DNA from: a virus
Direction: 5' to 3' (one strand)
Virus record (IMG/VR): IMGVR_UViG_3300045303_000182
Location: 32,001 to 96,000 of that record
Length of the DNA stretch: 64,000 bases
The notes below the pieces were generated by a model, which saw nothing but the letters and a program-made list of their open reading frames with translations, searched no databases and was not told the origin of the DNA. Every line of letters starts with the position of its first letter. Within the stretch, counting starts at the first letter, position 1. Positions 6,496 to 50,044 of the stretch are shown piece after piece. The translations under genes were made by a program, and so were the position numbers.

Positions 6496-8456
6496 GTGGA
6501 CCTCATGTCGCGCTGCGACGAGCCGATGACGAAGCCTTCGAAGCCTGCCTTCGGCTCACCCAGCTTCTCAGACGGGTCGCCCAAGGTGAGATAGCGATCA
6601 GGAGGCGTCACCGAGACAACCGAGTTCTCGTCACCGAGGGGGTAGACCATGGCCGCGGCCACGTCGATCGCTGCCGAACGCTGGACGGTGGTGTGCGCGA
6701 CGCGGTCGAAGATGTAGATGGCGGGGATCAGGTACCGGGCCTCAGGGAGGGTGCTGGTCTTCACCGGGGCGAGGCCCTGGCCGATGTACTGCTTCCACGC
6801 TGTGCCGCTGGAACCTTTGGGGATCCCGAGTGACACATCAATCACCTCGTCCACGTCACCGGACGGACCGATCCAGATGAGCACGGCCTGCACCGTGAAG
6901 TTCTTCTCGGGTGCCTGGACCCACACACTGAACCCGTAGGGCACGCCGGCGGTGATGGAGATGCCACCCGTCAACGGGATGGCATCGCGATACTCAGCCG
7001 TAGCTGGCGGCAGGATGTCGTCCCCTGGCCGAAGGATGGTGTCGGGGTCATCGCGGATCCGAGCGTCACCACAGGTGATCAACAGGTTGCTCAAGCCTTG
7101 GGCCTTCGTCGTGTACACACGCATGACGCCGCGGCCGGTTGGAGGAGCCACGTTCACGCGTCCAACGTAGATGCTGCTCCAGTCGAGCGAGGTCAACGAT
7201 GGCTCCTGGGCAAGTACCGGTGGCAGAGCCTGGGGGTGAACGCCGCCCCAGTTGCCGGTCGAGTTGAAGAAGTCGCTGTCGTCCGGGAACAGCACCAGCG
7301 TCTGACTGCCGGTGACCTGAGTCTCGTACTTCGACACGGCCTCGATCACCTGCCGCAGGCCGACGGCGGTACCTCGAGTGTGCTGAGCGTTGGGGGCGTT
7401 GGCTACCAGTCCGCGGTACCGGATGTCTCCGATGCCCGCCTCGTAGGGCAGCCCGTAGTTGGCACCCAGGCCCTTGAGCAACGGCATCGGCGTCTTGTCG
7501 ATCTGGTGCAGGTCGAGCACGCCCTCCACGAACTCGCGCGTGTTGTCCATCACGAAGCCGAAGACGTTGAGGAACTGGCGCAGGTGACCGGCACCGATGC
7601 GGTAGTTGTCATCGACCCACTGGTGATACGGAGGGACGCAGTCCCACATGCGCTCGCGGTGATGGAAGTCCCGCGGCAACAGGCATGAGTCACTCATCCC
7701 GACGATCCAGTCGATGGGCGTCGTGCGGAAGAAGAGCGTGTAGTAGAACGTGCGCCCGTTGGGGACGAAGCCGGTGTCCCAGCCATCCCCGACCGGGATC
7801 CGGGTGGGCAGCGGGTGGTCGTAGACGACAGGCGGTGGACCCAGCACTGGCTCGTCGTCCTCGGACATGAAGTCGGCGCGCAGCGATCGGAAGATCGTCG
7901 TGCCGTCTCGCGGTGTCGAGGGATGGCCGAACGTCGAGCGCACCAGTGCCACCTCGGCCCACTTGTCGGCGTACTGGACCGGCCAGCCCCACAGGATCTC
8001 GATCGTGTTGTAGTCGAAGGGCCGAGCGAAGAGGATCGCTGGCGCGATGTCAGGGTCGTATGGCTCAGCCGCCGTACTCGGATATCGAAGGGCGGTATGG
8101 GGCAGGTCTGTTCCCGGCCCGATGTTGACCCAGGCGGTGCCGTCCCAGCGGACGATGTGACCAGTCTTCGCGGTCACCACCGCTGGCATGATCGGGTTGC
8201 CGTTGCCGTCAAGCTGCGTAGGCGGCGGTTGCCACGACGGAGCGTTGCTGGGGATCGGAGTCCCCAGCAGCCATGACTCATTGGTGCGATTGAACGCATC
8301 CGCGGCGGGGATGACCGGCAGTGTCCCACCGTTGAGCGTGCCTTGGATCTGAGAGGTCGCGCGAACCCAGTCGCCTCCCACAGACGTGCTGTAGGACTGG
8401 CGCTTGACGCGGAACGCCGGGAGGTCGTACCCCTCAGGCCACCAAGTGTCGGTCAT
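6492..8456 (-). CDS. Baseplate wedge/tail protein (P2 gpI-like)
   Basis: LRQFLNVFGF...LLKGLGANYG...RGTAVGLRQVIEAVS; follows the baseplate J gene. Confidence 0.75.
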   Translation of the reverse strand: MTDTWWPEGYDLPAFRVKRQSYSTSVGGDWVRATSQIQGTLNGGTLPVIPAADAFNRTNESWLLGTPIPSNAPSWQPPPTQLDGNGNPIMPAVVTAKTGHIVRWDGTAWVNIGPGTDLPHTALRYPSTAAEPYDPDIAPAILFARPFDYNTIEILWGWPVQYADKWAEVALVRSTFGHPSTPRDGTTIFRSLRADFMSEDDEPVLGPPPVVYDHPLPTRIPVGDGWDTGFVPNGRTFYYTLFFRTTPIDWIVGMSDSCLLPRDFHHRERMWDCVPPYHQWVDDNYRIGAGHLRQFLNVFGFVMDNTREFVEGVLDLHQIDKTPMPLLKGLGANYGLPYEAGIGDIRYRGLVANAPNAQHTRGTAVGLRQVIEAVSKYETQVTGSQTLVLFPDDSDFFNSTGNWGGVHPQALPPVLAQEPSLTSLDWSSIYVGRVNVAPPTGRGVMRVYTTKAQGLSNLLITCGDARIRDDPDTILRPGDDILPPATAEYRDAIPLTGGISITAGVPYGFSVWVQAPEKNFTVQAVLIWIGPSGDVDEVIDVSLGIPKGSSGTAWKQYIGQGLAPVKTSTLPEARYLIPAIYIFDRVAHTTVQRSAAIDVAAAMVYPLGDENSVVSVTPPDRYLTLGDPSEKLGEPKAGFEGFVIGSSQRDMRST

Positions 8457-17123: not shown

Positions 17124-17280
17124 GCGCCTTCTCCCTCTTCCAGGTAATCATCTTGAGCCAGTAGCTCCGCTGTCGTCCGGTCATCGCACGTATCTCACTC
17201 AGGGTCCATCCGCTGTAGTTGGAGGCGATCACGTCGTAGTTGACGTACAGCGCCTGATCGTTAGCTACGAAAGAAGTCAC
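17116..17280 (-). CDS. Tail assembly chaperone, second ORF (T4 gp51-like; possibly a frameshift extension)
   Basis: LYVNYDVIASNYSGWTLSEIRAMTGRQRSYW in the +1 frame overlapping the end of the chaperone; only a GTG with weak RBS. Confidence 0.65.
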   Translation of the reverse strand: MTSFVANDQALYVNYDVIASNYSGWTLSEIRAMTGRQRSYWLKMITWKREKARG

Positions 17281-18739: not shown

Positions 18740-20620
18740 CTATGCGACCGGCTGGACTTCGGTCGTGAAGGAGCCACGATCGAACTGGGTGATCTTGATG
18801 ACGACGAACTCAGCGGGGTACTCCAACGCCACGCCGATCTCCATGCGGACTTCGCCCGACTGGATGACGGCTGGGGTGTTGATCGTGTCGTCGCAGGTGA
18901 TGTAGTACGCCTGAGCGGTGTTGGCACCGCGCAGCCCCCCTGCTTCCCACAGAGGCCGCAGGATGCGTTCTGCGGACATCCGCAGGGCACTCCACAGCCG
19001 CTGATCGTTGTTCTCGAAGACGGCGAACTGGGTCGAGCGCTTCACCACCTCCTTGATGTAGATGAGCGTCCGACGAGCGGAGACGTAGCGGTCAGCGCCG
19101 TACGTCTTGCGGGTGCGGCCACCCATCACGCAGATCCCCGAGCCGACCACGGAGCGGACGACGTTGATGTTCTGCGAGTTGAGATCACCGAGCTCAGTGT
19201 CGGTGAACTTCGTCTGCACGCCCACGGCGTTGCTGAGTCCTGCGATCACACCAGCGGGCGCGCGGAACACGCCGACGGTGGCATCGACGCGCGCCATCAT
19301 CCCGGCGACCGCCCCGCCCGGAGGCACGTTGATCGTGGTCCCGACCCGAGCCGGGTTGGGGATGATCAGCCAGGGGCCGTAGGAAGCCGAGTAGCTGTCG
19401 CCCGTGTTGGCCCCGAGCGACGTGACGATCTGCGTCTTGTAGACCGACGACGACGTGCCGGGGTTCCGCGGAGGAGCCGAGTCGTTGATGATGAAGATGT
19501 CCTGCCGGTCCGAGAAGAAGGTCGAGGGGATGGTCGCACCCACCCACGACGAGGCGAACTCGGAGGTGTCGGCCTTCGATGCGTCAGCGAGGTAGCCGCA
19601 GATGTTGAGGGCGATCGGACCCTCCACCTTGGTGATCATCTCGGCGGCGTCCTGGAGGTCACCAGCGTCAGGGATCGACGGATCGATACCACCGGCCAGG
19701 ACCACAGGGTCGTCGGTCGCCATCGGCCGCGGCTGCTGCTCGTTGATGCCCGACACCGAGAGGTACAGCGAGCCTGAGGCCGAGTCGTTGATCACCGTGT
19801 CGATGCGCCGCGTGCCTGGGATCTCGCCCTTGATCGACAGCGACGGGAACGTCTCCACGACCTCGTCGTTGCCTTCGCTGTTGCGGATCAGCACTTGCAG
19901 GGCGAACACGTCCTCGGCCGTCGCGCCGGCACCGACAGTGCTCTGCGTGGTGAGGCCGTACTTGAGGCCGTTGCCCCACACGCCGGGAGAGCGAGCCTTC
20001 AGCGTGAAGCTGGTGAGGTTGCCCGACCCAGTGTTCTGGCCGTTGACAGCGATGGTCGAGGCGGTGCCCTTCTCAGGGGCCGCGGTCGGCGTGGCTCGGA
20101 TCACCCAGCACAGCCGCCCACCGTTCTGGAAGTACGAGTAGACGCTGAACGGAAGGTACGAGAGCACCTTGGGCGTGACCGGGATGGCTGCCGGCGTGCC
20201 GGGGAAGGCACCGGCCACCCACACACCCGCAGGGGAGTGCGGCGTGAAGTGGGCCTTGGATCCATCAGCGAGCTTGACGTACTGACCCGCCGTGAAAGCA
20301 GCACCGCCGAATGGCGTCTGGTACTTGCCGTCACCGTAGGTGGCATGGGCCTTGATGGCGGTGAGGTCAGCGGGGACCGGCGTCGTGACACGGCCGGTCA
20401 CATCGTTGGGATCAGCCAGCGCAGGCTGCGAGATCGGGTTGAGGCCACCGAAGACGGTGACATAGTCACTCCAGGACTCAACGAGGATCGGCTCGTTCAC
20501 CGGCCCCTTCTCGGCAGCCCCGACGAAGGCACCCACGGTGTAGGTGCCCGCCACGTCGGACGGGTTGACGAGTAGTGACTCCTCGAGGTAGACGCCTGGA
20601 CGGCGGTAGTACATGGGCAT
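18740..20620 (-). CDS. Contractile tail sheath protein
   Basis: RPGVYLEE, YFQNGG, PPGGAVAGMMAR, VFRAPAG, FENND, PAEFVVI. Confidence 0.95.
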   Translation of the reverse strand: MPMYYRRPGVYLEESLLVNPSDVAGTYTVGAFVGAAEKGPVNEPILVESWSDYVTVFGGLNPISQPALADPNDVTGRVTTPVPADLTAIKAHATYGDGKYQTPFGGAAFTAGQYVKLADGSKAHFTPHSPAGVWVAGAFPGTPAAIPVTPKVLSYLPFSVYSYFQNGGRLCWVIRATPTAAPEKGTASTIAVNGQNTGSGNLTSFTLKARSPGVWGNGLKYGLTTQSTVGAGATAEDVFALQVLIRNSEGNDEVVETFPSLSIKGEIPGTRRIDTVINDSASGSLYLSVSGINEQQPRPMATDDPVVLAGGIDPSIPDAGDLQDAAEMITKVEGPIALNICGYLADASKADTSEFASSWVGATIPSTFFSDRQDIFIINDSAPPRNPGTSSSVYKTQIVTSLGANTGDSYSASYGPWLIIPNPARVGTTINVPPGGAVAGMMARVDATVGVFRAPAGVIAGLSNAVGVQTKFTDTELGDLNSQNINVVRSVVGSGICVMGGRTRKTYGADRYVSARRTLIYIKEVVKRSTQFAVFENNDQRLWSALRMSAERILRPLWEAGGLRGANTAQAYYITCDDTINTPAVIQSGEVRMEIGVALEYPAEFVVIKITQFDRGSFTTEVQPVA

Positions 20621-37221: not shown

Positions 37222-38583
37222 TCAGTTCGTGACGATCTTGCAGACCGAGGACTCGGTCACGACGCCCCAGCCCCAAATCGAGTACCACGCCAGCGCGTGC
37301 TCACGACCGAAGTCGAGCACCCCGCCGTCGCGAAGCTCCACCGGGAGGGAGATGGCATGACCGAAGGCGTTGTCGCCCAGGACGATGGCCTCGTACGCGC
37401 CACCCGACGGACCCCACGGCTGACCCCAGCCGGGGAGGCCAACGGAGCCGGTCGGGTTGTCGTCCAGCGCTGCCGGATCGGCAACGTCCGCGAACGGGTC
37501 GAGCGTCTCGTCGTAGTTGGTCATCGACAGGTCGCCACCGGCCTGCAGCGCGGCGCGCTGGGCCTCGGTGAGGCCGAGGGCCGTGCCACGCCAGTCCGGG
37601 TTGAACGGGTTCGCCGTGGCGACCGCCCCACCCGGCAGGTTCGGGTACGGATCCGACTCGGTGCCGGTGACCGGCGCACCGATCTGCGTCGTCTCGATGA
37701 AGACCACGTCGTCCAGACGGCCGATCTCGCCCAGCATGAAGTTGCCGGGAGCCGCGTACTTCGTGACCTCGATCCACTCCGGGGTGTCCCGGAGCCGACG
37801 GGACTGGTGCGGGTGGACGAAGCAAACGTACGTCTCACCGAGGCGAGGCACGTTCTTGCTCGACAGCACCTCGACGGCGTCCTTCACGCTGTGCGGCGTG
37901 AGGTAGTAGCCGTTGTCCACGCCACCCGCCGTCACAGCGGCGATGTTGGCGGCGACGGTCCCCGGCTCGTAGATGCCGTAGCCAGCGTTGATGGCGGCGG
38001 GCTTCTTGTAGCCGAACACGACGCTCGACGCGCGCTGGAGCGTGCTGCGAGCCTGGCCGTCCATGTAGAGCGCCATGTTGCGGCCCAGGAGACGCGAGGC
38101 CGAGGCCATCACGTCATCGAAGGACGCGTTGAGCAGGAGCTCGGAGACGGCGACCGCGAAGCCCTGCTCTGCGACGGTGATCGCGTACTGGTTCGCCGTG
38201 ATCGCGTGCGTCTTCATGCGGACGCCTTCGATCAGTGGCCCAGCGGGCATGGGGAGGTTGTTGTAGCGCATGAAGTTCACGGTCAGACCCGGCATCGTGC
38301 CGAGTTCCGTCTTCTTCACGGCGAACTGCTCGAACCGGAGCACGGGCATGCTCTGGAAGAGGATCTCCTTGGACCAGATGGTCTGGATCGCTGGACCCAT
38401 CATCGTGGTGCCGGATGCAACGGAGCCGGCGTAGCCGACCCCTGTGTTGTCCATCGTCGCGTTGCCGTAGTACCCCACAGGGGCCTCGTACTGCGAGTAG
38501 GGACCGCCCGTGGCGATACGCGTGGTACCGGTGATACCGGAAACTACGGGAAGCTCGCCACCGAGACCAGTACCTGCGGGCAT
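37222..38583 (-). CDS. Major capsid protein (N4-gp56 family, HK97 fold)
   Basis: LRFEQFA..PGLTVNFMRY, FVHPHQ, GEIGRLDDVVFIET, DFGREHALAWY; AAGGAG RBS. Confidence 0.95.
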   Translation of the reverse strand: MPAGTGLGGELPVVSGITGTTRIATGGPYSQYEAPVGYYGNATMDNTGVGYAGSVASGTTMMGPAIQTIWSKEILFQSMPVLRFEQFAVKKTELGTMPGLTVNFMRYNNLPMPAGPLIEGVRMKTHAITANQYAITVAEQGFAVAVSELLLNASFDDVMASASRLLGRNMALYMDGQARSTLQRASSVVFGYKKPAAINAGYGIYEPGTVAANIAAVTAGGVDNGYYLTPHSVKDAVEVLSSKNVPRLGETYVCFVHPHQSRRLRDTPEWIEVTKYAAPGNFMLGEIGRLDDVVFIETTQIGAPVTGTESDPYPNLPGGAVATANPFNPDWRGTALGLTEAQRAALQAGGDLSMTNYDETLDPFADVADPAALDDNPTGSVGLPGWGQPWGPSGGAYEAIVLGDNAFGHAISLPVELRDGGVLDFGREHALAWYSIWGWGVVTESSVCKIVTN

Positions 38584-39576: not shown

Positions 39577-41232
39577 TCACTCGGTCTGTTCGTCAAAGTC
39601 TGACCGCTCCGGCGGGTGCGGTCCATAGGCCATCCACTGAAGCTCCTGAGCCATCGCCGGATCGACCTGCTGGAGCATCGGAACGGGGTTGCCCTCGGCG
39701 TCAGCGCCCATCATCGGCTGCCCGTCGGGTGTCATGCCCGTCGCCATCATGGTGAAGCTGTTGATCTGGCCGCGGATGAGGTCGAGCGCACCCTGCTGCT
39801 TCGTGTCCTCCAGCACCTCTTCGAAGATCTCGCGCATCTTCTGGTCCGGGAAGGCGTAGCCGAGGTCGCGCAGCGCTCCGCGTCGGGACTCGAGGTTCAT
39901 CGCCATCATCGCCTGGATCTCGTTGATCTTGATCAGCCGGTCCATCGGCATCGGGGCGGGCCAGTCCACGTAGGTGCGGTAGCTCGCCGGGTCGTTGGGG
40001 TTGAGCTCGGGGTACTGGTCGGGCTTCAACTCCGTCGAGGACAGCATCGGGTTGTACACGACGAGGTCCGGGGCGAAGAGGAAGGCGTGCCGGATGATCA
40101 ACTCGTTGATCTGCTGGAACAGCGGCGTGTACTGGGTCTTCTTGCGCTCGTACTTGAGCATCAGCGGCTGGTACTGGATCGACAGTGCGACGCCTGATGT
40201 GTTACTGATCGGCTGCATCGTGCCGAGCGCCTGAGCCGGGACGCCGGTCAGTTCGTGCATCGCCTGCTTGAGCAACTCCATGTAGCCGAGCGGACCGGTG
40301 AAGTTGGTCTGCAACTCCAACTGGCTGATCTTGGCGTCCTTGTTGTTGATGGCCCACACCTTGCGTGGACCCTTCTCCAGGTTCGACGCCTTGGCTCCGG
40401 TGATCACCGTGACGGGAGCGACGTGGTAGTTGATGATGTCGCTGATCTCCGTGGCCTTCTCGTTGTACTCACGGTTGAGCGAGACGAGGTCGGTGATGTC
40501 GGCCAGGCCCCACGGCGACGAGGCCACAGGGATGTTGGTGCAGAAGGCGATCGGGATCGTGCCCAGCGGGTTGGGGCGCGCGTCGATCAGTTCGTCGTTG
40601 ATGTACTCCTCGATCGTCTCCTCGGTCATGAGCTCGACGTATGTCATCACCATGCGCGAGCCGTCCGAGGCCGTGCCCCAGAACTTGTACTTGAGCTTGA
40701 AGCGGATGAGGCGCGATCGATCGTGCGGGTGGAACTCCGGGAAGCAGAAGGCGGGGTTCAGCGGGAGGATGCGGATCTTGCCGTTGTGCGGCACGCCGGC
40801 CGGGTCCACGTACGGGTCTTCGAAGGCGACCTTGACGAACACGTCACCCGAGACACCACCAAGCTGGCCGATCTCCTGGAGGATCCCCATCTTGTTGTTG
40901 TGGACCTCCCACACTTCCTTGAGCGAGTACGGCACGATGGCCGCGGTCGCCTCGGGGCTGTGGAAGTTGATGCCCTTGCCGAAGCAGAAGTTGCAGATGT
41001 AGTCCGCGAACGCGCGCACCCAGTTGAAGACCAACTGCGGCTCGCCTATCTCACGCTTGTATGCCCAGTGATGGCCGAGGTACCACGCCCAGTTGCTGGC
41101 GTACCGGTTCATCCGAGGTCCGTGGACTTCGAACTCCTCGTCGGCAAGCTCCACCAGACCCAGCGGTGAGATAGCAACGGTGAGGTCGCTGGCAGCGCCT
41201 CGGTAGCTGGGTGGGTAGAAGGTGGCTGCCAT
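39577..41232 (-). CDS. Portal protein (SPP1 gp6-like)
   Basis: 551 aa; GGVSGDVFVKV, NPLGTIP, SNTSGVAL. Confidence 0.92.
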   Translation of the reverse strand: MAATFYPPSYRGAASDLTVAISPLGLVELADEEFEVHGPRMNRYASNWAWYLGHHWAYKREIGEPQLVFNWVRAFADYICNFCFGKGINFHSPEATAAIVPYSLKEVWEVHNNKMGILQEIGQLGGVSGDVFVKVAFEDPYVDPAGVPHNGKIRILPLNPAFCFPEFHPHDRSRLIRFKLKYKFWGTASDGSRMVMTYVELMTEETIEEYINDELIDARPNPLGTIPIAFCTNIPVASSPWGLADITDLVSLNREYNEKATEISDIINYHVAPVTVITGAKASNLEKGPRKVWAINNKDAKISQLELQTNFTGPLGYMELLKQAMHELTGVPAQALGTMQPISNTSGVALSIQYQPLMLKYERKKTQYTPLFQQINELIIRHAFLFAPDLVVYNPMLSSTELKPDQYPELNPNDPASYRTYVDWPAPMPMDRLIKINEIQAMMAMNLESRRGALRDLGYAFPDQKMREIFEEVLEDTKQQGALDLIRGQINSFTMMATGMTPDGQPMMGADAEGNPVPMLQQVDPAMAQELQWMAYGPHPPERSDFDEQTE

Positions 41233-42071
41233 CAGAATCCTTCGAACTGCATCTGGTTGGCGACCCGACGGTGCGTCGGCTCAGGCTCAGGCTGTGATAC
41301 CGCAGTATGGCGCAGTTCGGACAGCAGCGGCTCATGCGCGCTCTCAGTGGAGGCTCCCCACTCGCCCAGGCCCGCCCCCTTGCCGATGCGCTCCACGTCG
41401 TTGGTGGAGAAGTCGATCGCCTCGCTGAGGCTGCCCATGCCGCCACGGATCAGGCCCCACTTGGGCGTGTAGCCGATCGTCTGCCCGCTGCGCTCGCCCT
41501 CGTTCGCCACGACCGGATCGAACAGCGCCTGCTGGATGTGCGGCAGCTTGCCTTGCTCCTGGTGGAGGCGGTTGGCCTCGGGCGTGCCCTGCACAGCGTG
41601 GTGAGCGAGGTCCACGTAGTCGAGGCTGCCTCGAGCTTCGATCGTCGGCTCGCGACCGGTAGGGGTGTAGTCATGCACCCCTTGGGGGGCTATGGCGTGG
41701 TCCCGTACCGTGGTACCAGGACGGAGACGTACCTCGGCCTCGTTGTCGAAGCCCCACTGCGACTTGCCGGTCTTGAACTCGCCGTTGTCGGTGTAGTGCG
41801 AGCGGATGTTGCCGCCCATCCACTCGCCCTGGCTGATGATCTGGTCAGGGTCCACGACCGCTCGATGCACGGTGCGCTCCTCGTCGCTCCCGCCGAGGCC
41901 GGTGTAGTGAGCCACGTTCTGGTCGGTGGTCCAGTGGACGCCAAGTGAGTCACCAGGCCCGCCCTGCATGCGGTAGATCGTCGTGTTCGGCGTCGGGTTC
42001 TTGGCGAGCTTCTGGAACTGCTCCTTGCGGAGCTTCATGGCAGCCCACTCTTCATCGCTCACACCCGCCAT
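41232..42071 (-). CDS. Putative ADP-ribosyltransferase-fold protein (R-S/T-E type)
   Basis: TIYR...LGVHWTTDQNVA...EAEVRL. Confidence 0.55.
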   Translation of the reverse strand: MAGVSDEEWAAMKLRKEQFQKLAKNPTPNTTIYRMQGGPGDSLGVHWTTDQNVAHYTGLGGSDEERTVHRAVVDPDQIISQGEWMGGNIRSHYTDNGEFKTGKSQWGFDNEAEVRLRPGTTVRDHAIAPQGVHDYTPTGREPTIEARGSLDYVDLAHHAVQGTPEANRLHQEQGKLPHIQQALFDPVVANEGERSGQTIGYTPKWGLIRGGMGSLSEAIDFSTNDVERIGKGAGLGEWGASTESAHEPLLSELRHTAVSQPEPEPTHRRVANQMQFEGF

Positions 42072-42286
42072 CAGGTCCACCGGCTCTTGGTCGGGGACTT
42101 CGCGCGCATGTAGCTGCGGTAGGCGTTCTTGATCGGGTTGCGGACGTAGAGCGCTGGGAACTGCTTGCTGCTCAGCGTCGGGAAGGGGTCACTGGGACTG
42201 CCCGTCTGGTGCGAGGCAGCGAACGTCTCGATGTGGTGCCGCGGCGGCTGCCGGCGTGGGCGTGTCTCGCCGCGGTATCCAGGCAT
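42071..42286 (-). CDS. Small basic protein
   Basis: 71 aa from MPGYRGE; contains LSSKQF. Confidence 0.55.
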   Translation of the reverse strand: MPGYRGETRPRRQPPRHHIETFAASHQTGSPSDPFPTLSSKQFPALYVRNPIKNAYRSYMRAKSPTKSRWT

Positions 42287-42290
42287 CTCG

Positions 42291-42434
42291 CTACTTCGTG
42301 TCCTTGCCGGTGTCTTGGCGCTCGCGCCCCTTGCTGGCCGCAGACGGCTTGGCCTTGGTCTGCTCCTTCTTGCCCTTCGTGAACGGCTCGGCCTTCTTGC
42401 CGCCGAAACTCGCTGGCTTCTTGTCACCAGGCAC
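42291..42434 (-). CDS. Small Lys-rich protein
   Basis: GGAGGAGGAGG RBS then GTG; VPGDKKPASFGGKKAEPF. Confidence 0.55.
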   Translation of the reverse strand: MPGDKKPASFGGKKAEPFTKGKKEQTKAKPSAASKGRERQDTGKDTK

Positions 42435-42885
42435 CTGCGCTACCTCCTCCTCCACCCCCGCCAGGGGTGTCGTACATGGGTGAGCGCTCGACCTTGCGGT
42501 TCGGATCGAACGCTGTGTTATTGCCATATGAGCCGTTGATCCCTCGCGACCCGTGAGATCCGCCGGGGCCGTACTCGGCCTGGGCGAGCGCGCGTTGGCC
42601 GGGAAGCGAGGAGTGCAGCCGCCAGTCCTGGGTGAACCCGCCGCCCTGGGGATGGGGCACGACGATCTCAGGCCCCTGCTTCTGCGGCGGGGTGTAGCTG
42701 CCGGTGATGCCGATCTGCGGCCCCGGCTCCTTCTTGGGATCAGCGAAGAGCTTGTACGGGATCGTGCTCTCCAGCACGCTGTCCTTGTCGTCGGAGAAGA
42801 ACGCACCGTGGATCGCGCCGATCGCACCACCGCTGACGAAGCCAGCAGCAGCCTTGAGCGGGTTGGGCCACCAGTCCTTCGGCAT
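42424..42885 (-). CDS. Gly/Pro-rich hypothetical protein
   Basis: 153 aa; contains DPNRKV. Confidence 0.6.
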   Translation of the reverse strand: MPKDWWPNPLKAAAGFVSGGAIGAIHGAFFSDDKDSVLESTIPYKLFADPKKEPGPQIGITGSYTPPQKQGPEIVVPHPQGGGFTQDWRLHSSLPGQRALAQAEYGPGGSHGSRGINGSYGNNTAFDPNRKVERSPMYDTPGGGGGGGSAGAW

Positions 42886-43064
42886 CAGCTACCTCCGTGA
42901 CCGAACTTCTCCGTCATCTCGCTCAAGAAGCGAGAGTCCTCGTCGTCGGGGTTGTTCATGGTGGCCTTCATCCGTGCGAAGCGATCCTCCATGGCATCGC
43001 GCGACACCTGCCGATCGGGATGCCCAGCCTTGTTGGGCTTGTCCACTCCATGTCCACTCGCCAT
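42885..43064 (-). CDS. Small protein sharing its N-terminus with the neighbour
   Basis: 59 aa, below the ORF track cut-off: MASGHGVDKPNKAGHPDRQVSRDAMEDRF...; TGATG overlaps at both ends. Confidence 0.7.
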   Translation of the reverse strand: MASGHGVDKPNKAGHPDRQVSRDAMEDRFARMKATMNNPDDEDSRFLSEMTEKFGHGGS

Positions 43065-43279
43065 CAGCGTGATCCTCCTTGCTCTTTCGGCAGTTGGTGA
43101 CCCATGCCGATGCTTCTCATGTACTCGGCGTAGTCACCCGTGCCGACGGCCTTGGCCGAAGCGTCCGAAGCCCTCCAGGCGTCAAGCTCCTGGGCGTATG
43201 GACCAACGTCCTCAGGCCCGACCTTGCGGCCGGGATGGTCTGCCTTGTTGGGCTTCGGGACGCCATGACCGCTTGCCAT
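43064..43279 (-). CDS. Small protein sharing its N-terminus with the neighbour
   Basis: MASGHGVPKPNKADHPGRKV. Confidence 0.7.
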   Translation of the reverse strand: MASGHGVPKPNKADHPGRKVGPEDVGPYAQELDAWRASDASAKAVGTGDYAEYMRSIGMGHQLPKEQGGSR

Positions 43280-43281
43280 GA

Positions 43282-43500
43282 CTAGGCCGGAAGCTGCGTG
43301 GCCTCGGGCGGCGTCTCGTTGTCGCCGCGCGACGCCTGGATCTCATCGATCGCCGCCTGGATCTCGTCCACCTTGGCGTTGATCTCCTGGCCGACCTCGG
43401 CAGCCTTGGCCGACAGCGCCTGGCGCAGTTCCTGCACCGCCGTGTGTGCCTTCTCGATGGCGGCGTCGAGGCGACCTCCGGGGGTTGCTGTGTCACTCAT
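43282..43500 (-). CDS. Small coiled-coil protein
   Basis: 72 aa; AAGGAG RBS. Confidence 0.65.
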   Translation of the reverse strand: MSDTATPGGRLDAAIEKAHTAVQELRQALSAKAAEVGQEINAKVDEIQAAIDEIQASRGDNETPPEATQLPA

Positions 43501-43511
43501 GTCGTATCTCC

Positions 43512-43823
43512 TTATGGGGTTGGTTGACCAAGTAGATGGTCAGCGAGTTGTCGATGGAAGCCCTTGACGAGGGTCTGCGGGGGATCACCAAGCTCGTAGG
43601 GGTTCATCCCGATGAGCTCGTCAACCCCGTCCTCCGCAGGCTCGTAGAGCGGTACGCCTTCTTGGTACTCGGAGAGGTCGGACTCGGTGTCACTCGTTGA
43701 CACATAGACGTAGAGCGCCTGGCGCTCCTCGTCCCACTGTGCGCCATGGACCTTGACCTTGCCGTTGCGCGGCAGGTTGATGTCATATGCCAGCTTCCAG
43801 TACACGTCTTGCTTCTCAGCCAT
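43512..43823 (-). CDS. Hypothetical protein
   Basis: 103 aa ORF in operon. Confidence 0.6.
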   Translation of the reverse strand: MAEKQDVYWKLAYDINLPRNGKVKVHGAQWDEERQALYVYVSTSDTESDLSEYQEGVPLYEPAEDGVDELIGMNPYELGDPPQTLVKGFHRQLADHLLGQPTP

Positions 43824-43826
43824 GTG

Positions 43827-45167
43827 TCAGTCGGGGAGGTACAGCGCCCCGGCCCCTCTCTTGGTCCGTCTGGTGAAAGTTGTCTCGGGCATCGCTGCCG
43901 CCTGCCAACCGTAAACCTTCTCAGGTGTGTACGACAGGGTGCGAGCGCCTGGCTCCGGGTGCAGCGTGCGGTGGATCTGCTCCTCGCCCCAGGCAGCGCC
44001 CTGCTGGTAGCGAATCTTGCCGAGGCCGCGCTCGCCCAGCACCTGCCGGAAGGCGAAGTCCATCGCAGCGTGAGCGTGAGGGATGCGGGCCATCGCCAAC
44101 TCCCGCTCCGACTTGGAGCCAGTGTCAGCGCCCGACGGGTTGATGTTCTGCCCCGACCCCTTGATCCCGGAGAGGTGCGGGAGGGCGATCCCGGCCATGT
44201 GGATGTCGCCCACGGTGAACGGCGCAGCCTCGTCAACGAACGAGCCAGCGAACGGAGAGGTCTTCGGGGCTGCTCCGAACAGCGGGTTGCCCTCGGGTGA
44301 GGTCTTCGACGGCAGGCCCATCCAGTCGGTGATGTCAGCGCCCTCGATGCCCTGCTTGAGGCCCCATCCAGCCTTGCGGACGTTGGTGAACATGCCGATG
44401 CCACCACTGCCGGGACCATGGGTCCGACCGATCTCCTTGAGATCCTCCCCGGAGATCTCGCGGAACTGCTCACCCGTCGTGTAGCGCCCGCTCTGAGCGA
44501 TGTGTCCCGCCACCGCAGCAGCGTTCACGTTCGACGTGTTCATCGCCCCACCAAGGGTCGGCTCAGCGAACTTGTTCTTGGCCGAGGTCATGGCGATCGC
44601 TGCTGCCTGCCACTCGCTTGGGGCACCAGGGATAGCGCGCTCCAGCGACTTGCGAGCGAACGACTCAGGCTCGTAGAAGTTGGCGGCGTACGGCGTCGCC
44701 CCCATCTGGCTGGAGCGGGTGTACGCGCGATCGAGGCCACGGCCGAGGTCAGCCGTCATGCGGCCCAGGCTGGTGCCGTGTTGCTCGAGGCCGGCGTGAG
44801 CGCGGGTTCGCTCGTCATCGGAGAGGTCTTCCCAGCGCGTCGGCAACGGGAAGGGGTTGTTGCCGTGCTCGGCCAGTTCGTTGAACTCGTACATCGACGG
44901 AGCAGCGCGGGCGTGCGTCTTCTCGATGTCGGTCCAGCCCATCTTCTCGTAGTGGGCAGCCATGTCGCCAACGCCGCGCAGCGGCGAGTCCATCTTCGAC
45001 CCGCTCTGCTCGTAGGAGCGACGACGCGTCGTCAGCGTGTTCCGCACGGCCACGTTCTCCGGGCGAGCCATGTCCTCGGGGGTGAAGCTGCGCTTGACGC
45101 CCTCGCTGACATCGGACGCCTCGCGGAGCGTCTGGAGCGGCCGACCTCTCTGTGGTGCTGTAGGCAT
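43827..45167 (-). CDS. Putative HhH-GPD/EndoIII-like DNA glycosylase-fold protein
   Basis: AAAIAMTSAKN..NVNAA, PKTSPF, FTVGDIHM, YQQGAAW. Confidence 0.5.
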   Translation of the reverse strand: MPTAPQRGRPLQTLREASDVSEGVKRSFTPEDMARPENVAVRNTLTTRRRSYEQSGSKMDSPLRGVGDMAAHYEKMGWTDIEKTHARAAPSMYEFNELAEHGNNPFPLPTRWEDLSDDERTRAHAGLEQHGTSLGRMTADLGRGLDRAYTRSSQMGATPYAANFYEPESFARKSLERAIPGAPSEWQAAAIAMTSAKNKFAEPTLGGAMNTSNVNAAAVAGHIAQSGRYTTGEQFREISGEDLKEIGRTHGPGSGGIGMFTNVRKAGWGLKQGIEGADITDWMGLPSKTSPEGNPLFGAAPKTSPFAGSFVDEAAPFTVGDIHMAGIALPHLSGIKGSGQNINPSGADTGSKSERELAMARIPHAHAAMDFAFRQVLGERGLGKIRYQQGAAWGEEQIHRTLHPEPGARTLSYTPEKVYGWQAAAMPETTFTRRTKRGAGALYLPD

Positions 45168-45200
45168 ACGAAATCAGTTTCCGTTCGCTAGCATAAACCC

Positions 45201-45398
45201 GTGGCTACCAACCAACTCACCGGAACCGGCTCGCTCATCGACCTCCTTGAGGCGCTGACTGACGAGCAGCTTGAGGAGCAGATCACGTACTGGCAGGAGC
45301 GCCGTTCCGAGGCGGTGGCGCGCGGCTACGCCTCCTGGCGCTACAGCCGCTCCATCGAGACGGCCTCCGGGATCCTGTCCAGCCGTCATTCCGCCTGA
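45201..45398 (+). CDS. Small hypothetical protein opposite to the surrounding operon
   Basis: 65 aa; TAGCAT-6nt-GTG leaderless promoter; fills the gap between two minus-strand genes. Confidence 0.6.
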   Translation: MATNQLTGTGSLIDLLEALTDEQLEEQITYWQERRSEAVARGYASWRYSRSIETASGILSSRHSA

Positions 45399-45997
45399 GC
45401 CGCCCTCCGAGCCTTGATCTTGGACTCCTTGGCTGCCTTGGCGTCACGCACCGGTTGATTGGCCCAACTGGCGATCTCCGGGTACTTCTCCGGGTCGAGC
45501 GCAGTGGCCGGGTTGTTCTTGATGACGTTGGCGAACTCGGGGAACGCCGCCGACAGCCGAGCCGGGGGAGTGTGCTCCGACCCGGTGAACCATGGGTTCG
45601 GCTCCTCGGCCATGTCGTGGAGGCTGAACGACGCTTCCTGGCCGCGCAGAATCTGCGCTCGGCGTGAGTTGCTATGTCCCTGCGGCGTGGCCGGATAGAC
45701 CTTCGGGATGTCGAGCACGCTGGCGTCGTCGGACTGCCAGCCGCCGATCATCTCCTGGCCGCGACCCTTGGCCTTCTGCTGCTGCCAGAGCGGAGCCGAC
45801 CCGGCAACGTAGCCAGCGAGGTGTGCCTCGTCGGCGGTCCCGCCAACACGAAGCTCAGCAGCGGGGTGCGCTGCCACCGAATAGCCCTCGGTGACGAAGT
45901 CGCGCTTGCGGGGGTCGTACGTGAAGCCACCCTCCGTCGCGAGACGGTTCTTCATCTCACCGAACTGGTGATCGCTGGTAACTCCACTCCCACTCAT
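45386..45997 (-). CDS. Hypothetical phage protein (GGFT..GY.V..G.W..LD..Q.A motif set)
   Basis: 203 aa from MSGSGVTSDHQF. Confidence 0.6.
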   Translation of the reverse strand: MSGSGVTSDHQFGEMKNRLATEGGFTYDPRKRDFVTEGYSVAAHPAAELRVGGTADEAHLAGYVAGSAPLWQQQKAKGRGQEMIGGWQSDDASVLDIPKVYPATPQGHSNSRRAQILRGQEASFSLHDMAEEPNPWFTGSEHTPPARLSAAFPEFANVIKNNPATALDPEKYPEIASWANQPVRDAKAAKESKIKARRAAQAE

Positions 45998-46296
45998 CCC
46001 TGCGGACTCCTTGGCTTGACCCACCCCTTGCTGATCTGCTTGGCCCGCTGACGGGCCTGGATCTCGGGTTCCCGGATGTACTGCGGCTGGAGCGCCGGCG
46101 GAAGCTCATGCTTCTTGAGGTAGTTCTCCTTGGCCGCTGTGATCGCTGCTGGCGTGTTCTCCAGCATCTCAAAGCCGGTCTTCGACCGACTCGGCCCGAC
46201 GGGCTTGATGAGATACTTGCCCAGGTTGGACTTGGGACGACCAGGAGCCGCCTTGGTCCAATCGACCAACACCGTGCCCTTCTTGAGGGCGGGCAC
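45994..46296 (-). CDS. Basic hypothetical protein
   Basis: 100 aa ORF in operon. Confidence 0.6.
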   Translation of the reverse strand: MPALKKGTVLVDWTKAAPGRPKSNLGKYLIKPVGPSRSKTGFEMLENTPAAITAAKENYLKKHELPPALQPQYIREPEIQARQRAKQISKGWVKPRSPQG

Positions 46297-46299
46297 GGG

Positions 46300-46662
46300 T
46301 CAGTCCTGGACGTTCGCCGGGTTGATGCGGATCAGCCGTCGCTCGGAGCCAAGCTCCATCTCGAACTGCGGCGGCAACTGGCCGACCGAAGCGCCGATGA
46401 CGAAGTCCTGGAGCATGGTCGGTGCCTCGATCCAGGTTGCGCTGCCGACGTGAGCTCGCTCACGCATGGTCTGCATCGGATCCTTGACGCAGACGAAGGG
46501 ACGGCCACGACCGTCACCGCCCGGATCACCGTAGGCACCCTGGCCGAAGTCGGCGGGGATGTCGGTGTCGGTGGCGACGCCCTCTTCGAAGCGAAGGGGA
46601 CCACGCCGCGCGGTGTTGATCGCGATGGCGTGCTCGTAGCCCGATTCTGGACGGTATGACAT
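46300..46662 (-). CDS. Conserved phage protein, probably head-associated
   Basis: RRGPLRFEEGVATDTD..MRERAHVGSATWIEAP; AGGAGG RBS. Confidence 0.65.
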   Translation of the reverse strand: MSYRPESGYEHAIAINTARRGPLRFEEGVATDTDIPADFGQGAYGDPGGDGRGRPFVCVKDPMQTMRERAHVGSATWIEAPTMLQDFVIGASVGQLPPQFEMELGSERRLIRINPANVQD

Positions 46663-46725
46663 ACGGGCCTCCTGTTAGCTGGCTATGGACGGAGCATAGC
46701 CCTATACCACGACCTGGCTGAGGTA

Positions 46726-47754
46726 TCAGGACTCGGGCTTCCGCAGCTTCCACTTCTCTTCGTCCCGACGGGGAGTCCCAAGCCGAACGTCGGCGGGTGT
46801 CTCACCTTCGAATGGCAACCCCAACTGCGTACCGACACCGCCCGGACGCATGTCTTCCTTCACCTTGATCGACGGGTCGTAGCCAGCCTCGGCCAGATGG
46901 ACCAACGCCGGATGCGGCTTGTTGCGGAACGCGTGCTCGTCGCCGGTCCAGCCGTACTTCTCGCTGGCGGGTCGCCCGTTGAGCGGGTTCCGCGCCTGCA
47001 TCACATCCTCCGACCACGTCCTTGCCGTCTCGGGTAGTGCCCGATACGAGGTAGAGCCGACAGCCTCCACGTCGTTGCGATAGGCGAGCGTCTTGCCTTG
47101 CTCAACCAGATCGGTGGCCTTCTCGGCGTAGTTGGCAGCAGAATCAGACCAACGGGTGTCCTTGGTTCGCTCACCTGTCTCCCGGTTGACAATGTCGTTG
47201 TTGGATCGGTACGGACCGCCAGCGATCGACCCACCGGGCCTCTCCGTCATGAACGTTCCTCGAGGCGGGTCTGCCAACGTCTCAGCAGGGATGCGCGCTG
47301 GGTGCATGAACGGACGCGGCGCGCGTGACGCAGCGGCCTCCAGGTCACCGAAGTGCATGCCCACCGCCGAGCCGTAGTTGGTCATCGGGCGCTCTTGGGA
47401 GTCCACCGACCAGTCCCGGTAGTCCTCGTTCTCCTCGCCCTCGTCGTCGTAGTAGGCGTTGCCCCAGTCAGCACCTTCGAAGTCGGACGGGTCACTCGCT
47501 CGGTGCTCGTACTCGTCCGAGCGCGCAAGTTGCGAGTCCTCGGAGCCGTGCCAGGAGATCACGTCGTCGTGTGCCGGCGTGTCGCTCTGGCGCATCCAGT
47601 TCGACGGGTGGAGCCGCATCGGGTCACCCGTGTAGCCGCCAGTGGGAGCGAACAGTCGGCCCTGGGGGTGCTTCTCGGTGCCCTCGTAGGGCCGCGACTT
47701 GTCAGCAAGCCACAGGTGCCGCGTCTGTTGCGACAGGTGCTCGCCGTCAGCCAC
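46726..47754 (-). CDS. Putative ADP-ribosyltransferase (ART-PolyVal-like)
   Basis: WHGS...GMHFGDLEAAASR...YRNDVEAVGSTSY. Confidence 0.55.
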   Translation of the reverse strand: MADGEHLSQQTRHLWLADKSRPYEGTEKHPQGRLFAPTGGYTGDPMRLHPSNWMRQSDTPAHDDVISWHGSEDSQLARSDEYEHRASDPSDFEGADWGNAYYDDEGEENEDYRDWSVDSQERPMTNYGSAVGMHFGDLEAAASRAPRPFMHPARIPAETLADPPRGTFMTERPGGSIAGGPYRSNNDIVNRETGERTKDTRWSDSAANYAEKATDLVEQGKTLAYRNDVEAVGSTSYRALPETARTWSEDVMQARNPLNGRPASEKYGWTGDEHAFRNKPHPALVHLAEAGYDPSIKVKEDMRPGGVGTQLGLPFEGETPADVRLGTPRRDEEKWKLRKPES

Positions 47755-48013
47755 GACTACTCAGCCCACGGCCGAAGTCCTTGGCACGACCTCGCTCCGT
47801 GGCTTCGAACGCCTCATCCTCGATGCGGTCAGCGTGCTCAGCAGTGCCACCAACGGAGTGGAAGTCCTGACGAGCCTGCGTCCAGGCTTCATCCAGGTTG
47901 GCGCTCGCGTTGAGGATGTCGGGGTGCCGATAGTCAGCGTTGGGATACGCGGCTCGGTGAGCGGCAGCGGCAGAGACAGCCTCACGAAGCCTTTGGTCAG
48001 GCGAGAGAGCCAT
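47747..48013 (-). CDS. Hypothetical protein
   Basis: 88 aa; TAGCGT-6nt-ATG. Confidence 0.6.
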   Translation of the reverse strand: MALSPDQRLREAVSAAAAHRAAYPNADYRHPDILNASANLDEAWTQARQDFHSVGGTAEHADRIEDEAFEATERGRAKDFGRGLSSRG

Positions 48014-48025
48014 GACCGGACGCTA

Positions 48026-49627
48026 CTACCGGAAGAAGGGCGAATCGATGACTTCGACCAGCGGCACCGAGTCACCGATCGTGCAAGCGCAGGCCAGCGC
48101 AGCCGAGTCCACGTAGTCGTCGTGGGCCTCTCGCTCGCTGGGAGCCTCGATGAGGAGGTACTGGCCCTTCATCACCTTCTCAGCGTCGGACATCTGCTGG
48201 CGGAAGCGCCGCCAGACGCGCGTACGCCGCGCCTTGCTGTGGCCGGGGTAGATCAGCATCTGGCGCTGTGTCAGTTGGATGAGGTGCTTCCACCGCTCCG
48301 ACTGCGTCTTGGCGTCGCTGTTCATCGGGATGACCTCGCAGCGCGATCCCATCAGCCGCTGGATGCGATCGGCCACGGCGGAACCCATGCCCTGGGCGTC
48401 CACGGCGATGTGGGAGATGACATACGGGTCGAGGAACTCCATGATCTGGAAGTACTGCTCCTCCCACGCGGTGTTGTGGATCTCCAGCCAGTTGAGGATG
48501 CGGTGCTCGCGGTACCCGGCAGCGTCGGGGTGGTCCCAGTCCACCCAGCACACCGTCACGACGGTCGAGTCCTTCACACGGGCCGGGTCGATGCCCACGA
48601 CGCACGGCGTGCGGTGCCACGCCTTCATCAGCGGCATGCTCTTGTCGGCCAGCATGTCCAACTCGTCCTCGGTGATGAGCATGCCTCGGTCGAGCATCCA
48701 CTTGAGGCAGTAGCTCATCTGGAACTCTTCGGAGTCCTCCCCGAGGCGGTACTTCTCCTTCTCCACGAACTTGCGGTACGCCTCGTTGTACTTCGACACG
48801 ACGCGGTAGTCGTATTCGAAGTGGTTCGTGCGCCGGCCGCGCGCCCGACGCTTGTTGAGGTTGATGGCCTTGTAGAAGTCACCCTTGTGGTAGCCGGGGG
48901 TGCCGATCTTGACCATCGAGCCACCGGTCGAGGCGAGCATGGGGTGGATCGACTTGCGGATCACCTGCTCGTCAGCGTCCTGGCACTCGTCCACGACGAG
49001 GATGTGATACGTCGAACCTTCGATCTTCGCCCGAGGGTTGGCGGTGTGCCGACGGCAGCGGGAGCCGTTGGAGAGCTTCAACTCCCGGCTCTTGGCGTCG
49101 AGCTTGGTGGCGATCTCGGGATCCTGAAGGAAGTGACCGGCGCGGTCGCTGCTGAGGCGGTCGATCAGGCGGCGGTAGACGATCTCGCTCTGCTCATCGA
49201 CCGGGGCGAACAGACCCACCCACACGCCGTTCTTGAAGCGCTCCAGGATGGGATACGTCTTCGCCAGGATCGGGAAGAGGATCATCACCCCGGCCAGGGT
49301 GGTCGCCACGACCTCGCTCTTGCCTGACTGGCGGGCCAGGAGGCCGGTCATCTCCTCAGCGTCCTGGAGGACCAGGGACTCGATCATCCGGTACGACATC
49401 GCCCGCTGGTACGGGTAGAAGTCCTCGCCCCACAGTTCCTCGCAGAACAGGATCGTGCGCTTGACGAGCTCATCCACGAACCCGGCCATCTCGGGGTCGA
49501 GCAGGACGAAGGACTCATCCTCGGCCTGGATGTTCTCGCCCTCGTCGTCCTCAGCCTCCGCAGCGAGTTGCTCCTCAAGCTCTTCGTCGCTGGGGCCGTA
49601 GCCAAGGTCTTCGATGGTGACAGCCAC
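48026..49627 (-). CDS. terL: Terminase large subunit
   Basis: ARQSGKS (Walker A), VVDECQ (Walker B), IGTP, GIDPA, HDDYVDS nuclease motif. Confidence 0.95.
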   Translation of the reverse strand: MAVTIEDLGYGPSDEELEEQLAAEAEDDEGENIQAEDESFVLLDPEMAGFVDELVKRTILFCEELWGEDFYPYQRAMSYRMIESLVLQDAEEMTGLLARQSGKSEVVATTLAGVMILFPILAKTYPILERFKNGVWVGLFAPVDEQSEIVYRRLIDRLSSDRAGHFLQDPEIATKLDAKSRELKLSNGSRCRRHTANPRAKIEGSTYHILVVDECQDADEQVIRKSIHPMLASTGGSMVKIGTPGYHKGDFYKAINLNKRRARGRRTNHFEYDYRVVSKYNEAYRKFVEKEKYRLGEDSEEFQMSYCLKWMLDRGMLITEDELDMLADKSMPLMKAWHRTPCVVGIDPARVKDSTVVTVCWVDWDHPDAAGYREHRILNWLEIHNTAWEEQYFQIMEFLDPYVISHIAVDAQGMGSAVADRIQRLMGSRCEVIPMNSDAKTQSERWKHLIQLTQRQMLIYPGHSKARRTRVWRRFRQQMSDAEKVMKGQYLLIEAPSEREAHDDYVDSAALACACTIGDSVPLVEVIDSPFFR

Positions 49628-49810: not shown

Positions 49811-50044
49811 TCACTCCGTATCGAGGTACGAGGCGTCGCGAGGTATCACACGCTTGCGTGGTGGCTCTGGCTCTACGACCGGCTCTTCCACGTCGAGCTT
49901 CTTCGGCTTGCCGAGGCCGCGGTGGTAACCGGGGCACGCTGCCAGATGGTTCGCTACTGCCTGCTGCAGGGACACTCGCCTCATGTCAGGTGATGAGGTC
50001 CAGCCTCCGCAGTACTCGCAGAGGTGCCTCGCCTTGCGCGGCAC
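49811..50044 (-). CDS. Small Zn-finger-like protein
   Basis: CEYC...HLAAC. Confidence 0.55.
   Translation of the reverse strand: MPRKARHLCEYCGGWTSSPDMRRVSLQQAVANHLAACPGYHRGLGKPKKLDVEEPVVEPEPPRKRVIPRDASYLDTE

Follow-up and report, generated by a model that had tools for sequence, protein, structure and literature searches.

The interval between the large terminase (terL) and portal genes of an uncultured soil phage of about 110 kb is a variable accessory cassette within the late structural operon of a myovirus. We analysed it in a window of 64,000 nucleotides, bases 32001-96000 of the 109,846-bp IMG/VR record IMGVR_UViG_3300045303_000182 (judged 93% complete). Three of its products carry the argument: proteins A and C, which are modelled with ADP-ribosyltransferase (ART) folds, and protein B, a candidate HhH-GPD-like DNA glycosylase or lyase from a phage family that is likely remote kin of DUF7178. 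A, C and the wider family of B are mutually unrelated, and yet a peptide of the form Qxx[LM]F or Qxx[LM]x[FL] is conserved in all three, in disordered ends or in a loop. These peptides are the strongest mechanistic clue in the cassette and point to the host sliding clamp, DnaN, not simply to capsid loading. That A, C and B dock on host DnaN through such a tag has, in our estimate, a probability of about one half; clamp binding, use of NAD+ and the target are predictions from the sequences.

Predicted ADP-ribosyltransferase folds of proteins A and C

Twenty homologues of protein A were found, in which R34, S42, G44, H46, W47, E111 and E113 are invariant. An AlphaFold (AF2) model was built from the 20 sequences (predicted local distance difference test score, pLDDT, 82) and compared with known structures. 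The first structure search (VIA) covered 48,161 representative Protein Data Bank (PDB) chains without Foldseek, and the second look covered Foldseek's top 1000 chains. In the first search, residues 21-143 of A matched TreX best (Z 5.6, root-mean-square deviation (rmsd) 3.4, 88 residues aligned). Further matches were heat-labile enterotoxin (LT), TreTu, Scabin, CARDS toxin, PltA, RhsP2 toxin, pertussis S1, Tne2, Arr and ParT, and the top 21 rows were all ARTs. In the second look, ART toxins made up 24 of the 24 listed entries, with cholera toxin A1 at the top (Z 4.8 over 112 residues; Foldseek probability for cholera toxin, 0.82). In the model, R34 lies in strand 30-36, HWTT (H46-W47-T48-T49) is at strand 46-48, and E111-x-E113 runs up to strand 113-116, whose first residue is E113. 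The Arg on strand 1, the Ser/Thr on strand 2 and the ExE at strand 5 that characterize the R-S-E clade are all present. Thus, A is modelled as an ART fold of the R-S-E type (cholera/pertussis/Tre-like) with an intact R-S-ExE set and a predicted activity.

Protein C has 44 homologues, 38 of which were aligned (31-75% identity). H69, G132, H134, G136, Y225, N227, E230, S236 and R238 are invariant in these 38 sequences. With the AF2 model that they yielded (pLDDT 83, predicted template modelling score 0.77), 49 of the 48,161 chains reached a Z of at least 2, and all 49 have the ART fold. The best match had a Z of 4.9 (rmsd 3.7, 120 residues aligned). The list comprised RES toxins (Z 4.9 and 4.8), diphtheria toxin (Z 4.6), ParT, exotoxin A (ExoA), cholix, NatT and MbcT, and further an anti-CRISPR protein, PARPs, tankyrases, Scabin, Arr and a cyanophage pre-ejectosome protein. 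All of the 50 rows listed in the second look were ART-fold proteins. In a library of viral structures (BFVD), the best match was an uncharacterised phage protein (E 4e-4), and several ART-PolyVal domains and large polyvalent proteins were among the weak rows.

The alignment of C with diphtheria toxin begins at model residue 62, which is paired with toxin residue 14. H69 of C (in WHGS, or WH.S across the family) lies on strand 65-71 and, if the first strand is ungapped, falls on toxin residue H21, the NAD-binding His. In the model, H69 is probably the equivalent of H21. The strand-2 position reads G-M-H134-F-G, with an invariant His in place of the usual Tyr, and N227 and E230, located between strands 222-226 and 235-239, are both candidates for the acidic/amide residue. 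Any catalytic set for C is therefore tentative. As modelled, C has a diphtheria-toxin/RES/PARP-like ART fold, and its activity is predicted.

For both proteins, the case for the ART fold rests on the uniformity of the match lists, as the individual Z values are modest (all below 6). The hmmscan of A and C against Pfam gave no family at E<=0.1, PHROGs gave nothing, and the hidden Markov model (HMM) of ART-PolyVal, PF18760, found nothing in the genome at E<=1. The original prediction, made from the DNA letters, had called A and C ART-like. This is borne out at the level of the fold, the listed structural matches of C and those covering the N-terminal domain of A all belonging to the ART superfamily. 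It had also singled out short motifs: YR/HWT/ExE in A, HGS/HFG/YxNxxE..SY in C and a set including GDIH in B. These proved to be invariant columns in alignments of 20, 38 and 53 sequences, respectively, and are thus far beyond chance.

Residues 272-300 of C (46855-46941; PHPALVHLA..GYNP) gave a weak profile match of 29 residues (E 0.005) to the Cpl-7 lysozyme cell-wall-binding repeat (5i8l). Apart from this row, Pfam, PHROG and PDB-sequence searches with the larger open reading frames (ORFs) of the interval were without match.

Protein B and its remote relatives

Protein B has 10 close homologues, and a profile search recovered 97 representative clusters at 50% identity. Among 53 diverse sequences, with identities as low as 21%, twelve columns do not vary; they include S195 (in T-S-P), N262, K302, D321, H323, H331, D370 and W393. 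The candidate catalytic pair, K302 and D321, is 19 residues apart; the corresponding residues are also 19 apart in OGG1 (K249/D268) and 18 apart in Nth (K120/D138). When the B family was aligned by hhalign with E. coli Nth, its N..KA and PKT fell on NSKA and RKT (K120) of Nth, at a non-significant E of 0.83. A low-confidence model of B from the ESM Atlas is nearest to an AlkA-type HhH-GPD protein (TM score 0.58 by target and 0.31 by query, over 173 residues). B gave no match to PF00730, the Pfam HhH-GPD family, and the B profile found nothing in the PDB. The earlier description of B as glycosylase-like is thus partly supported: the Lys...Asp-x-His spacing and the Atlas TM score of 0.58 agree with it, whereas Pfam and the PDB profile were negative and the Nth alignment insignificant. 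We put an HhH-GPD-like fold for B, on this weak support, at a little better than even.

The relation to DUF7178 is likely, as judged by sequence comparison. The ESM Atlas places B beside DUF7178 clusters (score 0.95). In L008, one of the loci of relatives fetched for comparison, the position of B is taken by a 470-aa protein with a Pfam DUF7178 score of 24.8 bits (cut-off 27), which hhalign pairs with the B profile at 91% probability. The DUF7178 HMM (PF23802) matched neither B nor anything in this genome or in the phages LuckySocke and BCD7; within the B family it matched one of the 53 members, at 0.0044. The term 'DUF7178' was not found in the papers searched. One B homologue (P0010, on a 91-kb ENA contig) matches the family at both ends and is out of register in its middle, which looks like frameshifts in the assembly. 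With the two ART-fold families of A and C, the DUF7178-like family of about 100 clusters adds to the phage 'dark matter' for which a function can be predicted.

Clamp-binding-like peptides in three unrelated families

Ligands of the bacterial beta clamp carry a Q-phi-x-[LM]-[FL] or Q-phi-x-[LM]-x-[FL] motif in C-terminal tails, disordered N-termini or loops (PMC11139829); QESLF, for instance, is the clamp motif of mycobacterial DinB1 (PMC9346131). The peptides of the cassette follow this pattern in pattern counts, internal controls and disorder as judged by pLDDT, with Gly often at position 2.

In C, P-Q-G-R-L-F-x-P is the stretch of the disordered N-terminus that is conserved most strongly, with Q31, G32, R33, L34, F35 and P37 invariant or nearly so. 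A Q..[LM]F is found in the first 50 residues of 37 of the 38 family members, whereas internal segments would predict 0.7. Near residue 300-318, 26 of the 38 have a second motif, as Q[LM]SLP[FL] or Q.SLF, in which the hexameric and pentameric forms interchange. All 20 members of the A family have Q-Q-x-[ML]-[FL] near residue 180, and several A homologues end in QGTLF, QGSLL, ERLF or ESLF. An hhalign comparison of A with C was not significant; the sole stretch that it paired was QQALF of A with the N-terminal motif of C.

The tail of B in the close clade retains G438, G440, L444 and P445 as invariant residues. In the wider family, Q..[LM]F is present in the last 12 residues of 23 of 53 sequences (0.2 expected), and 20 of the 53 end exactly in the looser Q..[LM][FL], for example QLSLF, QESLF, QGSLF or QGRLF. 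Motif enrichment over internal controls is 50- to 100-fold, in three unrelated families.

The strict form Q..LF occurs three times in the approximately 33,000 residues of the whole genome: in A, in C and in P0170, a ParB-like protein of 300 aa. P0170 is encoded outside the window and far from the head module (G000:C1:9970-10872, minus strand; L020:971-1873). Its first 55 residues hold three clamp-binding-like motifs (QQRLPF, QPQLF and QFQMF), and its C-terminal GGHHR...NPD...P.QH segment resembles ParB/Srx; it has no Pfam match. Shorter paralogues, beginning H-L-Q-G-K-L-F or H-Q-L-S-M-F, lie directly before the portal gene in L008, L023 and L025. Our calling the small pre-portal protein of relatives ParB-like is a guess from the GGHHR motif.

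The interchange of pentamers and hexamers, the position at extreme termini and the recurrence in unrelated families of very divergent phages favour a universal host partner over a lineage-specific capsid partner.

Some other termini were also noted. In L022, a 153-aa ORF before the portal gene (16773-17234) starts with EHLGKQF...YHGT, like the N-terminus of C and H-Y-E strand 1, and a 74-aa ORF directly before terL (5861-6085) ends in DPRQGQLFDPAGY. The 77-aa ORF directly upstream of terL in the window (49811-50044, minus strand) has PRKRVIPR near its C-terminus, and the ORF upstream of terL in L025 ends in PRKRTIPR; this is a second, different terminal tag of the phage clade.

The late operon and its variation among relatives

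A single long minus-strand late operon contains, in order, terL, the interval, the portal, a scaffold-like ORF, the major head protein, a tail-fibre-like protein, the tail sheath and baseplate J (Table 1). From this gene set, which includes a tail sheath and baseplate J, the phage is contractile-tailed. The interval had been put at about 7 kb and measures 6.8 kb; terL and the portal gene, which flank it, are on the minus strand. A site scan found no promoter-like or terminator-like site above chance within it, which fits a single operon.

The nearest cultured relatives, by terL identity, are the Streptomyces phages LuckySocke and BRock (47%) and Bacillus phage BCD7 (39%). Between terminase and portal, LuckySocke has a 1.8-kb gap with five small hypothetical genes, gp71-75, which were examined and contain neither enzymes nor Q motifs; BCD7 has no genes there at all. 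Megablast and tblastn searches of 50,697 phage records gave no match to any of A, B and C or to two distant relatives of B. The homologues of the three proteins are all metagenomic, several of them on contigs of 105-122 kb. A contig assigned to a Lysinibacter metagenome-assembled genome (MAG) carries a distant homologue of C; on this and on the G+C content (64%), the host is probably an actinobacterium.

Synteny was assessed in 19 fetched loci, which are shorter than these contigs. The order terL - (g88) - C - g120 - g100 - g212 recurs in close relatives. L008 is without A and B and has the DUF7178-like protein, a DUF7218 peptide and a ParB-like protein. L025 (terL 76% identical) is without C and B and has a 707-aa unknown protein, A and a ParB-like protein. 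In L022 (terL 45% identical), g120, B and g103 are found in a 9.9-kb interval full of unknowns. The ParB-like protein replaces or accompanies A in relatives. Cassette turnover, for which the original prediction had proposed to look across related phages, was thus found, A, B or C being absent from some of them. Since content varies among relatives and g120 is the one interval gene with a counterpart in the cultured Streptomyces phages, this region is a hot spot in which tagged enzymes are swapped.

Proposed docking on the host clamp and other explanations

The replication genes of the phage include a family-A polymerase, PolA; DnaN and Pol III alpha were not found in the genome. As the phage has PolA and no clamp of its own, clamp docking would be aimed at host DNA and not at phage DNA. 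In the mechanism that we propose, the peptides would dock A, B and C onto the host DnaN clamp on DNA, where the enzymes would either ADP-ribosylate or cleave the DNA or modify replisome proteins that are bound to the clamp. A protein with two motifs could occupy the two pockets of a single clamp dimer. The enzymes are probably aimed at the host replication machinery or DNA. They may act late in the cell or ride in the virion, injection from the virion being compatible with clamp docking.

A wider reading, which we advance tentatively and regard as doubtful, is that the sliding clamp serves as the address of the host chromosome: the ARTs, the glycosylase-like protein and a ParB-like nuclease would disable host DNA or replisomes while PolA replication is spared. 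They would then constitute a novel class of effectors directed to the clamp, with ARTs that possibly modify DNA. If clamp docking is true, the phage would have a way to tell host DNA from its own without base modification, and the cassette would supply natural high-avidity clamp ligands.

Several points weigh against docking on DnaN. Sequence-profile methods link none of A, B and C to ART or HhH-GPD families, and the structural Z scores of A and C all lie under 6. The catalytic slot of C is ambiguous, with a His for the second-strand Tyr and either N227 or E230 as the key residue. The B of the window is without the Gln of the tag, and its A ends in QMQFEGF, not in Q..LF. The internal motif of A lies in a region modelled as partly ordered (pLDDT 73-89). 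Position 2 of most motifs is Gly, and the best binders have an aliphatic residue there. A five-residue motif might also serve another partner, such as a capsid component. Finally, the Lysinibacter MAG contig is the only hint of a host.

The original prediction saw the proteins as packaged in the head and delivered together with the DNA, like T4 Alt. P1 Dar/DdrB is a further parallel; Q..LF would then be a label for a capsid, scaffold or portal component. The genes do lie in the late operon of a myovirus, between terL and portal, and the tag is common mainly to proteins of this interval. Genes for phage ARTs are reported to be frequent neighbours of terminase and portal genes, and head packaging was inferred for their products (Iyer et al. 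2022, PMC9503650); DdrB-like ParB domains adjoin virion genes, P1 DdrB itself being found in the head (PMC5512222). Weak fold matches to a cyanophage pre-ejectosome protein (Z 3.5 and 2.9) fit as well. However, no Phage_Mu_F (MuF) HMM match was obtained in the genome, and neither a fusion to head proteins nor a signal for targeting to the capsid was seen. The ORFs scanned downstream of the portal gave no Pfam or PHROG match to a head protease, protease and cleavage sites not having been specifically searched for. Moreover, the tag is present in very divergent B members (21-30% identity), presumably of different phages, as would fit a universal host partner; its five- and six-residue forms interchange as in known clamp ligands; and the gene of one ParB-like protein with the tag lies well away from the head module. 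We consider a capsid label unlikely. This alternative concerns the role of the tag, and injection and clamp binding could both hold.

Clamp-type peptides would also be apt for enzymes whose substrate is the phage's own DNA once it has been replicated. In this Mom-like scheme, as in phage Mu, the enzymes would work late through clamps or replication intermediates and add an ADP-ribose-derived or base-exchange mark before packaging, against restriction. Co-transcription with packaging genes and the DNA-glycosylase-like residues of B agree with it, as does the existence of ART clades that modify DNA, namely DarT, pierisin and Scabin (PMC9503650), the last being among the matches of A. Against it, a phage with PolA and without a clamp or Pol III may have few clamps on its DNA, and A, B or C can be absent in close relatives, which is odd for an essential DNA modification. 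Neither an eraser nor sugar-nucleotide genes were found, the Macro HMM matching nothing in the genome. We judge own-DNA modification improbable, and a weaker alternative than docking on host DnaN. Lowest of all we place the view that the two ART-fold proteins have no catalytic activity and serve for binding or structure in a fast-evolving filler, the likeness of the motifs being coincidental. The low Z scores, the lack of Pfam matches, the missing canonical Tyr of C and the many tiny lineage-specific ORFs nearby would suit such a filler. It is made very improbable by the polar residues that are strictly invariant at the expected catalytic places in 20-53 homologues, and by the 50- to 100-fold enrichment of the motif over internal controls in three unrelated families.

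Small open reading frames of the interval

Frames in the interval were analysed by the G+C content of the third codon position (GC3), and most ORFs are backed by high values. The interval has 14 co-oriented ORFs, in agreement with the original estimate of about 14, and GC3 corrected two of the original calls. One, 42071-42427, was rejected as a single ORF; a GC3 frame switch divides it into two small ORFs in different frames, s47 and s71. The other, 45174-45389 on the minus strand, has a GC3 of 0.61, as non-coding DNA, and was rejected as a gene in favour of a 65-aa ORF on the plus strand. Antisense copies of the latter (36-43% identical by tblastn) occupy the same place in L006, L010 and L022. 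Its product may have a regulatory role or inhibit an enzyme encoded nearby. At the matching site, L008 has an unrelated, Cys-rich antisense ORF of 54 aa.

The identity of g120 is 74-88% in close relatives, 50% in L021 and L022, and 45% with LuckySocke gp71, which adjoins the terminase. It is the sole interval gene common to the cultured Streptomyces phages and always stands directly after terL or C. It gave no Pfam or PHROG match and nothing above noise in the ESM Atlas. It may be a true packaging or head component rather than cargo. No Pfam match was found for g88, and no Pfam or PHROG match for g212. Four small ORFs, g72, p71, p59 and g153, have no homologues in the fetched loci; g153 has a hydrophobic N-terminus and a Gly-rich tail. 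The adjacent microproteins p59 and p71 (59 and 71 aa; 42885-43279, minus strand) have a common start of some 20 residues (MASGHGV.KPNKA.HP.R.V) and differ thereafter.

Table 1. Features of the terL-portal interval and of the late operon around it, in operon order (positions in the window).
Feature	Coordinates	Strand	Remarks
Large terminase, terL	48026-49627	-	Pfam Terminase_6N/6C and PHROG 2; upstream boundary of the cassette
g88, 88 aa	47747-48013	-	~43% identical copies after terL in L004, L007, L009
Protein C, 342 aa	46726-47754	-	Predicted ART-fold domain, residues ~44-310, H-Y-E-like; two flanking clamp-binding-like peptides
C residues 31-35, QGRLF	47650-47664	-	Pentameric; disordered N-terminal tail (pLDDT <50)
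C residues 310-315, QLGLPF	46810-46827	-	Hexameric; disordered C-terminal region (pLDDT <50, residues 308-331)
g120	46300-46662	-	Most conserved interval gene
g100	45994-46296	-	Small; 42-81% identical in relatives, always after g120
g212	45386-46024	-	~68% identical in L004, L006, L007, L008
65-aa ORF	45201-45398	+	GC3 0.85; replaces 45174-45389 (-)
Protein B, 446 aa	43827-45167	-	Phage family likely remotely related to DUF7178; candidate HhH-GPD-like DNA glycosylase/lyase
B K302 to D321-I-H323	44199-44264	-	Candidate catalytic Lys/Asp pair, 19 residues apart; invariant (n=53)
B C-terminal tail GAGALYLPD	43830-43856	-	Gln-less variant of the Q..LF tag of the family
g103	43512-43823	-	Small, travels with B; 50-61% identical directly after the B homologue in L021, L022
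g72 (coiled coil), p71, p59, g153	42424-43500	-	Four lineage-specific small ORFs; GC3 0.69-0.86
s47	42291-42434	-	Lys-rich; GC3 frame switch; 73% identical in L008
s71	42071-42286	-	GC3 frame switch; 68% identical before the A homologue in L023-L025
Protein A, 279 aa	41232-42071	-	Predicted ART-fold domain, residues ~21-143, helical C-terminal domain and disordered tail
A residues 180-184, QQALF	41520-41534	-	Internal motif; H178 and Q180 invariant
A C-terminal tail NQMQFEGF	41235-41258	-	pLDDT <50, residues 257-279
Portal	39577-41232	-	Pfam SPP1_portal 9.9e-23 and PHROG 64; downstream boundary of the cassette
Scaffold-like ORF		-	After the portal in operon order
Major head protein	37222-38583	-	
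Tail-fibre-like protein		-	Between major head protein and tail sheath
Tail sheath	18740-20620	-	
Baseplate J	8453-10681	-	

Comparison with known systems

ARTs encoded by phages near their packaging genes are a known theme, and their targets are mostly unknown. The cassette resembles the phage ARTs encoded beside terminase and portal, of which T4 Alt is the prototype (Viruses 14:1977, PMC9503650), in having stand-alone ART genes in the head module of a contractile-tailed phage, with A as an R-S-E member. It differs from them in that A and C fall, by sequence, outside Alt/VIP2 and all Pfam ART families, that one cassette has two unrelated ARTs, and that terminal clamp-binding-like peptides are present and a MuF fusion is not.

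Polyvalent proteins (Iyer et al. 2017, PMC5512222) likewise combine ART, ParB-like and uncharacterised domains next to late genes, and the weak viral fold neighbours of C include ART-PolyVal domains (H-Y-D) and large polyvalent proteins. In contrast, the proteins described here are separate small ORFs with their own starts and stops, without a zincin peptidase or MuF, and none of A, B and C has the at least two unrelated effector domains per polypeptide that characterize polyvalent proteins. The original picture of a split, modular set agrees with the published surveys, and C has ART-PolyVal domains among its viral fold neighbours; MuF is lacking, and the ORFs are separate.

B shares with the HhH-GPD glycosylases (EndoIII/Nth, OGG1, AlkA; PF00730) the Lys...Asp-x-His spacing and a motif order collinear with Nth. 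Unlike them, it is twice the size of Nth, is without the Fe-S cluster motif, and has no significant PF00730, PDB or PF23802 match.

The peptides are like known beta-clamp ligands (Pol II, Pol IV, Hda and DinB1 QESLF; QL[SD]LF/QLxLxL; PMC11139829) in their motif pattern, in where the motif lies and in that five- and six-residue forms replace each other. They differ in that position 2 is mostly Gly and that they are borne by phage proteins of the ART-fold, DUF7178-like and ParB-like kinds instead of by replication or repair factors. Phage examples of clamp ligands are the T4 gp45 partners and MuC of Mu (PMC12867686). The word 'clamp' is absent from PMC9503650, PMC5512222 is also silent on clamps, and our literature search found no paper joining a clamp-binding motif, a phage and an ADP-ribosyltransferase. 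Relative to the published ART surveys, the putative clamp-type tag is a new element: three unrelated enzyme families in one cassette with a shared clamp-motif peptide suggest a concrete target, DnaN.

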